Origin: an uncultured archaeon
GTDB lineage: Archaea > Asgardarchaeota > Heimdallarchaeia > Heimdallarchaeales > Heimdallarchaeaceae
DNA: 37,622 nt
Direction: 5' to 3'
Assembly: GCA_964534625.1 (NCBI GenBank)
Contig: CAZHRF010000032.1
Location: forward strand, 1 to 37,622
Shown here: in pieces, positions 2,696 through 34,847 of the stretch
Layout of the letters: the number at the start of each line of letters is the position of its first letter
How positions within the stretch are numbered: position 1 is the stretch's first letter
Made by a program: the position numbers and the translations under genes
The notes under the pieces: model-generated
The model's input: the letters and a program-made list of their open reading frames with translations, nothing else
Told to the model about the DNA's origin: nothing
Database searches by the model: none

Positions 2696-4300
2696 ATGAG
2701 TTCGCTCCTAAATTACTTGCGATCGATAGATACTGATACTTTTGTCTCAAAAATACAGAAAAAAGAATATTTAACTCAATTGATTGATAAATTTGATCTT
2801 GACAATACAAAAACCATAGACGGATTTGCAGAGTTTATGCTTATTGAGACAAGAAAAACAATCAATGCAGGAAATAGGACAGATGGAACAAAAATCCTAA
2901 AATATGTGAAAGCACTATTTCCGTTCATTTCGGAAGAAATGCATGTTTCATTTTATTTGGCTTTAGCAGATTCTTTTCTTGTAGCAAATGATTATACAGG
3001 TGCGTTTAAAGCTGCATCAAAGGCCAAGATTATTGCTAATAATGCACAAAATCCCAAACTAGAGATTAAAGCCTTAAATCTATTATTTATTATTCAGAGG
3101 ACATTAGGGAAGGATAAAGCAATTAATTATCTCCTTAAATCTAAAAAACTCTCAATTGAAGTTGAAGACCACGAAAATATTGTTTTCTGCGATGTGAACA
3201 TCGGTTTAATCCATCTCTTTAATAAGAACAATAAAAAGGCTGCAGAATATGTTAAACGGGTAATAAACCATCTGACTGTTTATCCTTATCCTGAAGAGAA
3301 AATTAACATGCCTGCTGATTTCTATATCCAAGTATTTACTGAAAATCCTGGATATATTACCGCTCCAATATATAAAGAGACAGTAAGAAATGGTGTAGAA
3401 GTGGTTTTACGTGCAGTAAAACATATTGAAAATATACAACAAGCTTCAAGAAGAATATCATTACTCATTTCAACATTAAAATTATCAGATGAAATTCTAA
3501 CCCGAACATTGAAAATTATAGAAAGAGGATTGGAAGAAATATCCAAAGAAAAACGTTCGAGTTATTACATGGCTATTGCTAGTGGATTGGGTGATTATAA
3601 AGACTATAAGCTTGCATTAGTCTTTCTCGAAAAAGCTATTAATCACTTAGAGCATGTTAAAGATGAAGAAACACATAGGAAAGTAAGAAAAAATTATGGA
3701 TATACCATATCAAGAGTTCTTAATGCTACAATGGCATATGATTTACAGTCAAGCTCAAATCTAATCAATCAATCACGAACCATTTCAATAGAAACGGAAG
3801 AAAATAGTTTAATAGGAAAAAGAGCAACAAAAATATCTTTTAGGAACTCTCCCTACGATTCAGATTCAGTCTATGGTATTAGTAGGTCTCACATTGTGAA
3901 TCAAATAATACCCAGCATTAAAGAAGTATATGAATGGAAACCAATTATAAATAAACTTAGAATTTCACATAGCAAAAAAGATCCCATTAGTGAGGTAGAA
4001 CTTATTGTCATAAATGCAAAAGGACAGGACGATGATATCCGCTCTTTACTTTTGATAGGTACGGTTTTGGATGAAAAAGGATTGAGAAAAAAAAGAAGGG
4101 TATTTACTGGATTTCAGATTGTAGGACACATTGTACCAAATCAAATATTGCAAGAAAATCATTTTGAAGAATATGATATTAAATTCATTTATGATTTAAT
4201 TTATGCTCCACAAAAATTCAAAGAAATAGAACTATTAACTAATAGTAAAAACTTGGATCTCAACTTTGAATCTATTGGTAATGAGATAAAAAAAGGTTAA
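2696..4300 (+). CDS. Hypothetical protein with N-terminal TPR-like helical repeats
   Basis: 534-aa ORF; TPR-like patterns (YLALADSFLVANDYTGA, NIGLIHLFNKNNKKAAEY, ALVFLEKAINH). Confidence 0.6.
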   Translation: MSSLLNYLRSIDTDTFVSKIQKKEYLTQLIDKFDLDNTKTIDGFAEFMLIETRKTINAGNRTDGTKILKYVKALFPFISEEMHVSFYLALADSFLVANDYTGAFKAASKAKIIANNAQNPKLEIKALNLLFIIQRTLGKDKAINYLLKSKKLSIEVEDHENIVFCDVNIGLIHLFNKNNKKAAEYVKRVINHLTVYPYPEEKINMPADFYIQVFTENPGYITAPIYKETVRNGVEVVLRAVKHIENIQQASRRISLLISTLKLSDEILTRTLKIIERGLEEISKEKRSSYYMAIASGLGDYKDYKLALVFLEKAINHLEHVKDEETHRKVRKNYGYTISRVLNATMAYDLQSSSNLINQSRTISIETEENSLIGKRATKISFRNSPYDSDSVYGISRSHIVNQIIPSIKEVYEWKPIINKLRISHSKKDPISEVELIVINAKGQDDDIRSLLLIGTVLDEKGLRKKRRVFTGFQIVGHIVPNQILQENHFEEYDIKFIYDLIYAPQKFKEIELLTNSKNLDLNFESIGNEIKKG

Positions 4301-5376: not shown

Positions 5377-5445
5377 TGTAATAGATGATGACGGTTTTAC
5401 CGTATGAGCTAACGCTATGATTAGTATTGGCACACTGATATTACA
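5377..5445 (+). ncRNA. C/D-box 2'-O-methylation guide sRNA (16S helix 18 guides)
   Basis: 7-bp terminal stem TGTAATA/TATTACA; box C ATGATGA 5385-5391; D' ATGA 5404-5407; C' ATGATTA 5417-5423; D CTGA 5435-5438; guides of 11-12 nt. Confidence 0.85.
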
Positions 5446-31900: not shown

Positions 31901-32923
31901 ATGTCCTATTTGATGTCAAAATTAGAAAAGAAAGAATTTTGTGCCTTTCATTATAAAACTAAATCCGATGGTACATGTAGTCGATGTGGCTTATCTATTT
32001 GTCAACTAGACCAACATTACAATGAAAATGTTGAACGTATATGTCCATTGTGTGCAAATTCTGTTAAAAACAAAGGTAAAATGCGCCTAATAAACATGCT
32101 AGTATGGACACTGATTTTGGCATTTCCAATACTATGGATAACAACGGATATTGATTTTTATTATTTGATGTTGGGTGTCATAGCATTTTTTGGTCTGTTA
32201 AATTATGTTTTGAAACCTTTAATGTTAAAAGTAAACTTTAGTGGATTAGAAAAAAGTGAGATGATCCTTCCTCTGTTGCAATATTTTGAAGCTACAGGTA
32301 ATGAAGATTATTATGATTATTTTATTAAATACCTCTCAAAGATGTCAAATGACACACTACAAGAAATGAAACCATATCTTTTAAGATATTTAGTACCTGC
32401 AATAATTTTTAACTATACTAAACTACCTGAAGATTGGGATGCAAAACTATTAACTGCTTTAAATTATACGGAAAAAGAATTTGCAAAATTAATAATTGCT
32501 GATTATCGGAATCTTGTATTAAGAATAGCTGTCAATCATTGTGAACCAGAAGTATCAAAATTCATCTTATATCTAGGTAAAGTTACAGGAGATGAGGAAT
32601 TCATTAAAGAGTATATTCGTGAAATCACTTCTGATGAAATTATGAATCTTGAAGAGAAAGAGATAAAGAGTCTATATAAAAAACTGTTAGAAGAACTATT
32701 TGTGTATGAAGATACATTTTATGAACTCTGTGATAAATATGAGCTAAACAAAGAAAAAGAACGTATTCAAGCACTTCTTTCTATCTATGAACCTCCCGCT
32801 GTACCTACTTCTATGTTAGAAGCAATGTTACCGCAAGAACAAATTGATTTGAAAAGAAAGCAAAAAGAATTGGGCTCGAATAGCGATATTAATTTAGAGT
32901 TAGATGTAGAACGGCCGGACTAG
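31901..32923 (+). CDS. B-box-like zinc finger + 2 TM helices + helical domain protein
   Basis: CAFH-x7-CSRC-x4-CQLD...CPLC, followed by two hydrophobic segments. Confidence 0.7.
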   Translation: MSYLMSKLEKKEFCAFHYKTKSDGTCSRCGLSICQLDQHYNENVERICPLCANSVKNKGKMRLINMLVWTLILAFPILWITTDIDFYYLMLGVIAFFGLLNYVLKPLMLKVNFSGLEKSEMILPLLQYFEATGNEDYYDYFIKYLSKMSNDTLQEMKPYLLRYLVPAIIFNYTKLPEDWDAKLLTALNYTEKEFAKLIIADYRNLVLRIAVNHCEPEVSKFILYLGKVTGDEEFIKEYIREITSDEIMNLEEKEIKSLYKKLLEELFVYEDTFYELCDKYELNKEKERIQALLSIYEPPAVPTSMLEAMLPQEQIDLKRKQKELGSNSDINLELDVERPD

Positions 32924-33044
32924 ATCCTTTAATACTTTCTTTATGATAATTGTTCCTTCTCATGTTTCCCTTCTAAAAATTTTCATAAAAAAGCCTTTTC
33001 TACAATATGAAAATAAATAATAAGTAGAATAAGTAAAGAAAAAT

Positions 33045-33127
33045 AGGGGAGCCGAGATGATAGGGATTATTCAACCACTGATCGAGGTAAACTATGATGA
33101 TCTCAGCTCACATAGATCGGTTCTCCT
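33045..33127 (+). ncRNA. C/D-box guide sRNA (LSU rRNA guide) with variant terminal K-turn
   Basis: 11-bp terminal stem AGGGGAGCCGA/TCGGTTCTCCT; C-like ATGATA 33057-33062; D' CTGA 33078-33081; C' ATGATGA 33094-33100; D-like TAGA 33113-33116; T-rich tail. Confidence 0.75.
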
Positions 33128-33224
33128 CTTATCTTTTCTTTAATCCTCAATGAAATAAAAAAAGCTTTTAAACTATTTTAATACATCAACATGTAAATTA
33201 CATAGTACTGAGAAGAGATGGCAT

Positions 33225-34847
33225 TTGAGTATAACTTTTACACAATTAAAAAAGATCTTTAAGGGTTTTCTTTCTGTTCTAAGTGTATCTTTAATATTGG
33301 GAACCATTGGATACTTTTTAATCTCTCTTTTTTTACAAATTACATATTTATCTTATAATCTCTCTTTTTTCTCCGCATATTTTGAAATCATTTTAAACAT
33401 CATTATATTGTTATATGAAACATTCGCCCTACTCTTTCTTTGTTTTTTATTTATTATACTTAAAAATGCCATCCAAATTTATGAACAAGAGAAACAGTTT
33501 ACAGTTGCTTCTTATCCTTCTCTTTCTATTTGTATCCCCGTAAATGAACCCAACTTATCTGTCCTTAAACAAACATTTAAAGTGCTCTCTAATATTAACT
33601 ATCCAAGATCAAAATTTTCAGTACTTTTGGGGGATGATACTTTGATTTCCCCACTAAAAGAGAGCGAACAACAAAAATTGAAACAAATACTTCCCTTCGA
33701 GTATATTTACGCCCCTGAAAATACATCATTTAAAGCTGGAATGATGAATATTCTTCTTCAGAAGACACAGGCTGAATATATTATTTTTTTAGATTACGAT
33801 CATATCATCGTCGAGGATTTTCCATTAAAGTCGATCTCGATTCTTGAAAACAACAAAGATTTGTCTTATGTTCAAGCTAAAGTGAATTTCAGGAATATCC
33901 AATCATATATTCAAAAATGGCAAGTACTTATGTATGCATTGTTCTTTGAAGTGTTTAACATCTCAACATTAAGGGAATCTAATGTGCTCTTCAACGGGTC
34001 AACGTGCTGTTTCCGGAAAAAAAGTTTAACAAGGATAGGTGGTGTGCCTGAATCCTCAATAACCGAGGATATAAGCTTGAGCCTTCTACTCATTCTCTCC
34101 AATAAAAAAGGTTATTTATTGAATGAATATGGAAGTTATGGTTTAGTACCTACAGAGTTTTCTATGGTACTATCACAAGTGTTACGGTGGGCAGAAGGAT
34201 GTATGCAAAATCTTAGATTATATGGCAAATCTATTTTAAGAGGAGATCTGTCTGGATTAGAAAAAATAGATATTCTTTCAAACCTTTCCGTCTTTCTTCT
34301 TTCTTCATCGCTATTAGTAGAAAGTGTTCTTATCCTATTGGCGTATGGTTTTGGTTATAATATGATTAGAATTGAGTATGTTCTATCCTTTTCTCTTCTC
34401 ATCCCTTTTGTGGTCTTTAGTTTATCTGTCCTCTTTGCAAGTATAGTTGCATGTGTACACATAAGAACAAATCGACAAATTGACTTATACATCAAAGATA
34501 TACCATTATTACTCTATTTATTTATGGTTCTAAACCCGTTTACTATTTACTCTTTTTTCATTGGATTTGTTTTATATAAGAAACCAGATAAATCACACAC
34601 AAAATGGAACCGAGATATTCCTATTGTATTAATATCGCTATTAAGTAGTTGTTATGGTAGTTTACTTTTATTCTTAGGTATATATGAGTACATCAAAATA
34701 ACTGAATGTACTCCTTTTTTATTGTATTTTATTATTTTTGGTTTATTCTTATTTCTAACTTATCCAACTGTTCAAATTTTACAGAGTAGATCAAAAAATG
34801 ATAACCCTTATTTATCTTATCCAAGTCAGAAAGTAGGGAAAGAGTAG
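33225..34847 (+). CDS. Membrane GT2 processive glycosyltransferase (cellulose synthase-like)
   Basis: DD, FKAG, DYD (DxD), FNGS, TED, QVLRW (QxxRW); multiple TM helices at both ends. Confidence 0.9.
   Translation: MSITFTQLKKIFKGFLSVLSVSLILGTIGYFLISLFLQITYLSYNLSFFSAYFEIILNIIILLYETFALLFLCFLFIILKNAIQIYEQEKQFTVASYPSLSICIPVNEPNLSVLKQTFKVLSNINYPRSKFSVLLGDDTLISPLKESEQQKLKQILPFEYIYAPENTSFKAGMMNILLQKTQAEYIIFLDYDHIIVEDFPLKSISILENNKDLSYVQAKVNFRNIQSYIQKWQVLMYALFFEVFNISTLRESNVLFNGSTCCFRKKSLTRIGGVPESSITEDISLSLLLILSNKKGYLLNEYGSYGLVPTEFSMVLSQVLRWAEGCMQNLRLYGKSILRGDLSGLEKIDILSNLSVFLLSSSLLVESVLILLAYGFGYNMIRIEYVLSFSLLIPFVVFSLSVLFASIVACVHIRTNRQIDLYIKDIPLLLYLFMVLNPFTIYSFFIGFVLYKKPDKSHTKWNRDIPIVLISLLSSCYGSLLLFLGIYEYIKITECTPFLLYFIIFGLFLFLTYPTVQILQSRSKNDNPYLSYPSQKVGKE

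Follow-up and report, generated by a model that had tools for sequence, protein, structure and literature searches.

A family-restricted box C/D guide RNA with a compensated kink-turn variant, predicted in a Heimdall-group Asgard archaeon

The double-guide box C/D sRNAs of Sulfolobus, Pyrobaculum, and Nanoarchaeum are built in the order C-guide-D′-C′-guide-D, with a 12-nt D spacer and a target nucleotide set by the N+5 rule (PMC4644070, PMC6009581). The 83-nt RNA described here, from a window of 37,622 nt (the whole stretch of DNA that was analyzed), has the same layout, D spacer, and register, and resembles the archaeal sRNAs in having two predicted guide targets within 100 nt of each other in LSU domain V (helices 90–93) and a host that encodes L7Ae, Nop5, and fibrillarin. 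It differs from them in its long 11-bp terminal stem, in its AUGAUAG and UAGA boxes with an A-U pair at 4b·4n and a U-A pair at 3b·3n, in its 14-nt D′ spacer and 12-nt linker, and in its host, a mesophilic, AT-rich Heimdall-group Asgard archaeon. Our literature search turned up no account of C/D guide RNAs in Asgard archaea. As we discuss below, the predicted RNA is in all probability a genuine methylation guide of the archaeal box C/D type; it is an unannotated, family-restricted addition to this known class, with a compensated kink-turn variant and a D′ guide of interesting history, and leaves the understanding of what C/D RNAs do unchanged.

The RNA occupies positions 33045–33127 (+) in an intergenic gap of 300 nt, between an ORF of 340 aa (31901–32923) and a GT2 glycosyltransferase ORF (33225–34847). 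Its parts and the flanking elements are as follows.

33010–33023 (+): A/T-rich TATA-like element, a putative promoter of its own, ~25–30 nt upstream of the stem; from the sequence
33045–33055 (+): 5′ arm of the terminal stem (C helix of the kink-turn), paired with 33117–33127
33056–33058 (+): kink-turn bulge GAU, 3 nt, unpaired between the stem and the tandem G·A pairs
33057–33063 (+): box C variant AUGAUAG (consensus RUGAUGA), aligned with AUGAUGA/AUGAUGU of the orthologs
33064–33077 (+): D′ guide, 14-nt spacer, with a CAACC core in 30 of 30 orthologs
33078–33081 (+): box D′, CUGA, read in the sequence and the family alignment
33082–33093 (+): linker between D′ and C′, 12 nt (3–6 nt in relatives)
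33094–33100 (+): box C′, AUGAUGA, from the sequence and the family alignment
33101–33112 (+): D guide UCUCAGCUCACA, 12-nt spacer, antisense to LSU GUGAGCUGGG
33113–33116 (+): box D variant UAGA (consensus CUGA), aligned with CUGA of 28 orthologs
33117–33127 (+): 3′ arm of the terminal stem, from the sequence, the MFE fold, and the family alignment
33128–33143 (+): T-rich tract, a possible archaeal terminator, from the reading of the sequence

Three of the 11 pairs of the terminal stem are G-U. Beyond the bulge, tandem sheared pairs (G33059·A33116 and A33060·G33115) are followed by U33061-A33114 at 3b·3n and A33062-U33113 at 4b·4n. Rereading the sequence returned the 11-bp stem, 3-nt bulge, tandem G·A pairs, and canonical internal boxes just where a preliminary description had placed them, and its interpretation of the element as a C/D-box sRNA is supported, agreeing with all that could be tested. 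The MFE fold gave an identical terminal stem with an energy z score of −1.6, so folding energy alone is not significant. At the sequence level, the element has every property of an archaeal box C/D sRNA. Boxes C and D make a kink-turn by sequence logic, boxes D′ and C′ are present internally, the guide spacers are close to 12 nt (D, 12 nt; D′, 14 nt), and the D guide has the expected complementarity of at least 9–10 bp with a Watson-Crick pair at N5; by the same measure, the D′ guide pairs over only 8 contiguous bp at LSU 3040–3047. The host encodes the three core proteins: fibrillarin (C27:13647-14318) adjacent to Nop5 with its Nop domain (C27:14432-15109), and L7Ae (C5:50141-50404). A UGAUGA-14 nt-CUGA half-motif (G000 C5:50048-50071, −) lies ~70 nt beyond the L7Ae gene on its downstream side, where the following ORF begins; its spacer contains a 9-mer complementary to LSU 1433, and the half-motif is probably due to chance.

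The host assembly (G000; 3.37 Mb, 32% GC) contains one LSU rRNA and one SSU rRNA. The LSU rRNA (G000 C1:19540-22912) is 3373 nt long against 2987 positions in the archaeal model, indicating sizeable expansion segments, and is 3375–3424 nt in three relatives with a complete copy. In the host LSU, the D guide forms 10 contiguous pairs, one of them G-U, with GUGAGCUGGG at local positions 3011–3020, and the nucleotide at N5 upstream of box D faces A3014 in a Watson-Crick U-A pair. Our E. coli numbering comes from a gapless alignment with bacterial 23S rRNA, anchored on the established A-loop U as 2552 (the "E. coli" record used was an atypical, 23S-only one); A3014 lies 25 nt past this U and corresponds to E. 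coli A2577, and U3043 lies 54 nt past it and corresponds to 2606. Yeast Um2921 corresponds to E. coli U2552, and A3014, as the equivalent of A2577, is therefore the counterpart of yeast A2946. In yeast, Am2946 is 91–99% methylated and is assigned to snR71 (PMC5199042). The preliminary description had anticipated both the 10-nt pairing with its single G-U and the +5 assignment to the A2577/Am2946 equivalent, and had staked the idea on the host 23S rRNA containing the target; the pairing, the register, and the target sequence were all found in the host's own LSU.

Taken alone, the D-guide match is modestly unlikely, as 312 of 4000 shuffled guides could form 10 bp, including no more than one G-U, at some place in the rRNAs (p ~0.08). 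Guide variants in the family (CCUAGCUCAC, CUCAGCUCAC, and CUCGGCUCAC) all keep 10–11 pairs with GUGAGCUGGG(U), and the LSU target sequence is identical in four relatives. Among host tRNAs, no target for either guide convincingly covered N5. Written as oligonucleotides, the candidate guide substrates are GUGAGCUGGG and GGUUGGAUUC.

Evidence from related genomes carries far more weight. We located orthologs in the same GTDB family by synteny and with a covariance model built from 18 copies; the final alignment has 32 rows. The upstream 340-aa gene has a single ortholog, with 39–45% identity, in 29 of 30 other family genomes, and directly downstream of it in those genomes is a C/D sRNA with the same guides. 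The covariance model, a check that the preliminary description had proposed, identified one sRNA ortholog in 29 of the 30 and a second, tandem copy in two of these 29, with strong covariation in the stem; it found no copy in 52 other genomes of the class. The one family genome with no match also lacks the neighboring gene, and the missing copy is therefore likely to reflect an assembly gap. Across the alignment, 91.4% of cells were paired, compared with 42–51% when partners were slid; 10 of 13 pairs varied on both sides, including 8 of the 11 in the terminal stem, and no shuffle attained the observed covariation. The boxes form invariant columns, as do the guide cores GCUCAC and CAACC, each with one more nucleotide before its box (D and D′, respectively); the stems, the linkers, and the outer positions of the guides vary. 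A D spacer of 12 nt is common to all 30 orthologs. As judged from this alignment, it is the conservation in 30 genomes, and not the guide match alone, that places the element far beyond chance.

Simpler searches recovered none of this family. BLASTN in 40 relatives returned short chance matches only, and the best "guide" matches proved to be codons for AHIDHGK of EF-2 rather than homologs. The exact pattern TGATGA...CAGCTCACNNNGA occurred across the order in the window itself only, and a search of genome contigs for related loci with the upstream 340-aa protein yielded nothing. Over the whole window, Rfam gave no match at gathering score; the best sub-threshold matches were to two C/D snoRNA families, SNORD33 (22.5 bits; gathering, 44) and snR71 (RF00479; 16 bits; gathering, 60; E = 2.9). 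Strict consensus scans of the host genome gave 0 and 1 matches, and the RNA thus escapes both Rfam at gathering thresholds and strict consensus patterns, much as had been expected of consensus-based scanners. A target-driven 9-mer scan of the host genome performed no better than a reversed-target control.

Several features of the locus and its surroundings can be recorded here. The 340-aa gene (P0001; window 31901–32923, +), whose linkage to the sRNA is strict throughout the 30 genomes, matched nothing in Pfam or NCBIfam. Its product begins with a Cys-rich region resembling a zinc ribbon; two hydrophobic helices are predicted, and the C-terminal half is helical. The tandem sRNA copies (G042:C29:25617-25702 [L073:1339-1424, −] and G022:C63:32664-32749 [L072:1666-1751, +]) lie ~80 nt downstream of the first copy, ~160–165 nt from start to start, and differ from it in their D′ guide (AAAUGCACGAACAG/A) and in having a degenerate box D (CGGA / CAG-); the arrangement resembles a recent duplication in which one copy is diverging or decaying. 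The window contains another C/D-type sRNA at 5377–5445 (+), with a 7-bp stem, box C UGAUGA, guide CGGUUUUACCGU, D′ AUGA, C′ AUGAUUA, guide GUAUUGGCACA, and box D CUGA. Its C′/D′ pair is the U-A variant, and 9 nt of its D′ guide are an exact complement of the host SSU rRNA at local position 469.

The alignment also clarifies the variant boxes. Box C of the window copy departs from consensus at positions 6–7 and box D at positions 1–2. At 4b·4n, where position 6 of box C faces position 1 of box D, 28 of the 30 orthologs have G-C and one has U·U; A-U occurs in this lineage only. At 3b·3n, most orthologs have U·U, four relatives have A-U, one has C·U, and the window copy has U-A. The equivalent internal positions (C′ position 6 and D′ position 1) covary across the family, with U-A in 19, G-C in 5, and mismatches in 6. 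Read against the family, the box C and box D deviations are a real double substitution, from G-C to A-U. The boxes had been called compensatory from the window sequence, and the A-U pair at 4b·4n indeed takes the place of the G-C pair of 28 canonical orthologs.

An independent microbialite study from 2024 provides contigs of a ~90% identical relative that span the entire RNA; in them, the two variant boxes, the two internal boxes, and the D guide are all preserved. Relative to the window, these contigs have four substitutions in the RNA, three in the stem (33045 A>G, changing A-U to G-U; 33048 G>A and 33051 G>A, each changing G-U to A-U) and one at an outer position of the D′ guide (33064 G>A), all of which preserve or improve pairing. 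In the same contigs, no differences occur in the 57 nt upstream of the sRNA, compared with 12 substitutions and 4 indels in the 115 nt downstream. Because changes in the sRNA are pairing-compatible and the upstream 57 nt are unchanged while the downstream spacer has diverged, this comparison argues for purifying selection on the variant form and the promoter region. Adjoining the fully conserved 57 nt, between the 340-aa gene and the conserved promoter region, is an indel hotspot: where the window has 42 nt (32946–32987), the microbialite contigs have 118 nt of different sequence.

A Watson-Crick 3b·3n pair and UAGA as box D are both atypical for box C/D RNAs. Usual box C/D k-turns have U·U at 3b·3n and G-C at 4b·4n, in contrast to U-A and A-U here; k-turns with a Watson-Crick 3b·3n pair share with the window RNA the 3-nt bulge, the tandem G·A/A·G pairs, and the Watson-Crick pair that follows. 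[quoted passage not shown] By these general kink-turn rules, we infer from the protein-dependent folding of box C/D k-turns that the variant should still be usable with L7Ae.

The D′ guide has a less settled assignment. Its CAACC core is complementary to GGUUG, which is present twice near the D target, once in the A loop (GGUUGUUCGCC, N5 = U2552) and once at the base of helix 93 (GGUUGGAUUCU, N5 = U2606). The best host match of the window's D′ guide is the second of these, LSU 3040–3047 (GGUUGGAU), with 8 contiguous bp (−11.9 kcal/mol) and N5 at U3043 (E. coli 2606); all 11 target nucleotides pair if a UU bulge is admitted. At the A loop, the window copy forms 5 bp (−8.2 kcal/mol). By shuffling, a D′ match of 8 bp within 100 nt of the D target has p ~0.03. 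The commonest D′ guide, GGAAUUACAACC (genera g2, g3, and g5 and part of g4), forms 6 bp at the A loop and, at the helix 93 base, 5 + 6 bp interrupted by a single bulged nucleotide. In one g4 clade, AUAGCGAACAACC pairs over 11 bp with the A loop (−18.7 kcal/mol) and more weakly with the helix 93 base (−9.1 kcal/mol), and several other g4 lineages have 7–9 bp at the A loop, again with a weaker helix 93 base. The D′ spacer, 14 nt here and 13–16 nt in relatives, exceeds the norm for thermophiles. Perfect complements of the D′ guide were absent elsewhere in the host genome, and the relatives' GGTTGTAATTC occurred at chance frequency.

The family's D′ target is ambiguous on these pairings, and for the window copy we favor U3043 (2606) with about an even chance of being right. 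Relatives' copies pair best with different GGUUG sites, and the D′ guide therefore appears to have moved between two rRNA sites with a common seed. The preliminary description had guessed at the GGUUG near ~2603–2607; this stands as the best match in the host genome (8 pairs, U3043) but does not carry over to some relatives, whose guides clearly fit the A loop (U2552). We also considered a second U2606 guide at C18:~2557 and rejected it, as this candidate runs antisense within an ORF of 387 aa and has no other part of the layout. The A-loop and helix 93 sites are both classic ones; to our knowledge, methylation of U2552 is common to all domains. The host has a stand-alone FtsJ/RrmJ-type methyltransferase, a strong match (G000 C2:127681-128211, −; 196 aa, 175 bits). 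We speculate that this homolog could methylate A-loop U2552 with no guide, and such activity might be the reason why the family's D′ guides drift from the A loop. Of the sites that Dennis et al. predicted, 2606 alone recurs in all six of their thermophilic archaea, and no other archaeal C/D target is predicted as widely (PMC4644070).

The TATA-like box sits at the same distance from the sRNA in the orthologs as in the window, which makes it a candidate promoter, in a region that is AT-rich throughout. The sequencing runs that contain the sRNA sequence are DNA runs, from microbial-mat metagenomes. Putting these observations together, we consider it highly probable that 33045–33127 encodes a functional, independently transcribed archaeal C/D sRNA that guides methylation of A3014, and most likely of U3043 through D′; transcription, L7Ae binding, and methylation all enter this reading as predictions from sequence. 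L7Ae would bind the terminal kink-turn (the stem, GAU bulge, G·A/A·G pairs, U-A, and A-U) and the internal C′/D′ motif, and Nop5 and fibrillarin would assemble next. The 12-nt D guide would then pair with LSU GUGAGCUGGG, allowing fibrillarin to 2′-O-methylate A3014, the A2577/Am2946 equivalent located between helices 90 and 93 in the peptidyl-transferase region, and the D′ guide would most likely pair 29 nt downstream at GGUUGGAU, directing methylation to U3043 (2606). Such an RNA would be a double guide that may also help in folding of this region of the LSU. In this lineage, its kink-turn was rebuilt, with the closing G-C pair (box C position 6 and box D position 1) becoming A-U and the neighboring U·U becoming U-A.

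Other explanations need to be weighed against this one. That the motifs came together by chance in AT-rich intergenic DNA is extremely improbable: the fold z score of only −1.6, the guide-match p of ~0.08, and the lack of an Rfam match at gathering score would each fit chance, and 30 syntenic orthologs with covariation and invariant boxes and guides refute it. It is unlikely that the RNA binds L7Ae but guides no methylation, serving instead as an rRNA-folding chaperone or as part of a UTR, either processed from the flanking genes (340-aa and GT2) or regulating them. The complete C-guide-D′-C′-guide-D layout, 12-nt D spacer, and Watson-Crick N5 are what methylation requires; the guide cores, and not sequences facing the neighboring genes, are invariant; and a TATA-like box is equidistant in all orthologs. 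These properties speak against a non-guiding element more strongly than the following speak for it: strict linkage to the upstream gene in 30 genomes, the proposal that double guides with nearby targets act as chaperones (PMC4644070), and regulation by archaeal L7Ae through mRNA kink-turns, which is known (PMC6298567).

A further possibility is that this copy is decaying, having lost canonical boxes C and D in its lineage and with them RNP assembly, and is now drifting. It has the lowest covariance-model score of any ortholog (62 bits; the others score 63–101 bits) and is the sole one with UAGA and AUGAUAG, its linker has grown to 12 nt, and its D′ guide has lost most of its A-loop complementarity. 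The two box changes, however, restore a Watson-Crick pair instead of breaking one, and the G·A/A·G pairs, 11-bp stem, 12-nt D spacer, and full D guide are intact. Moreover, the ~10%-diverged relative holds the variant boxes exactly and has pairing-compatible changes only, against 12 substitutions and 4 indels in the 115 nt downstream. We therefore regard decay as very unlikely and retain the reading of a functional methylation guide.

On that reading, a Heimdall-group lineage keeps a predicted guide for a ribose methylation of rRNA beside the catalytic center, one that in yeast (Am2946) is near-stoichiometric. The family also offers two clean natural experiments. In the first, a compensatory change from G-C to A-U has rebuilt a kink-turn, which is useful for rules of L7Ae and k-turn recognition and for better sRNA finders; in the second, the target of a guide seems to move between two rRNA sites with a 5-nt seed in common.

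Among described RNAs, yeast snR71 is closest in its guide. The snR71 consensus (RF00479) contains an identical 10-nt antisense element, CUCAGCUCAC, one nucleotide before a NAGA-type box (CAGA there, UAGA here), and it has the same predicted target nucleotide in the same register as the window D guide. The antisense element of snR71 lies in the box C/D′ half, however, and that of the window RNA in the C′/D half; the two share only box C′ and the antisense element, and the window RNA is not a member by score. The likeness is no evidence of common descent, because the shared guide is dictated by the conserved target. We think it quite unlikely that the Heimdall sRNA family and eukaryotic snR71-type snoRNAs derive from one ancestral A2577/Am2946 guide, in combination with a naturally bispecific D′ guide (U2552/U2606 through the GGUUG seed); if this were true, snoRNA orthology would be traceable across the archaea-eukaryote boundary. 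Within archaea, the A2577 site is predicted in one of seven species of Dennis et al., where by offset it is the target of Mka sR56 (23S A2851; PMC4644070). For the D′ guide, the nearest parallels are Nanoarchaeum equitans sR10 and other sRNAs to 23S U/C2880 (E. coli 2606), in which the 2606 guide is paired with a second nearby guide to domain V (Dennis et al., 2015). Neq sR10 joins guides to 2606 and U2552 in one RNA (PMC4644070), and it is between these two sites that the D′ guides of this family are split; in the window family, by contrast, the constant partner guide targets A2577.
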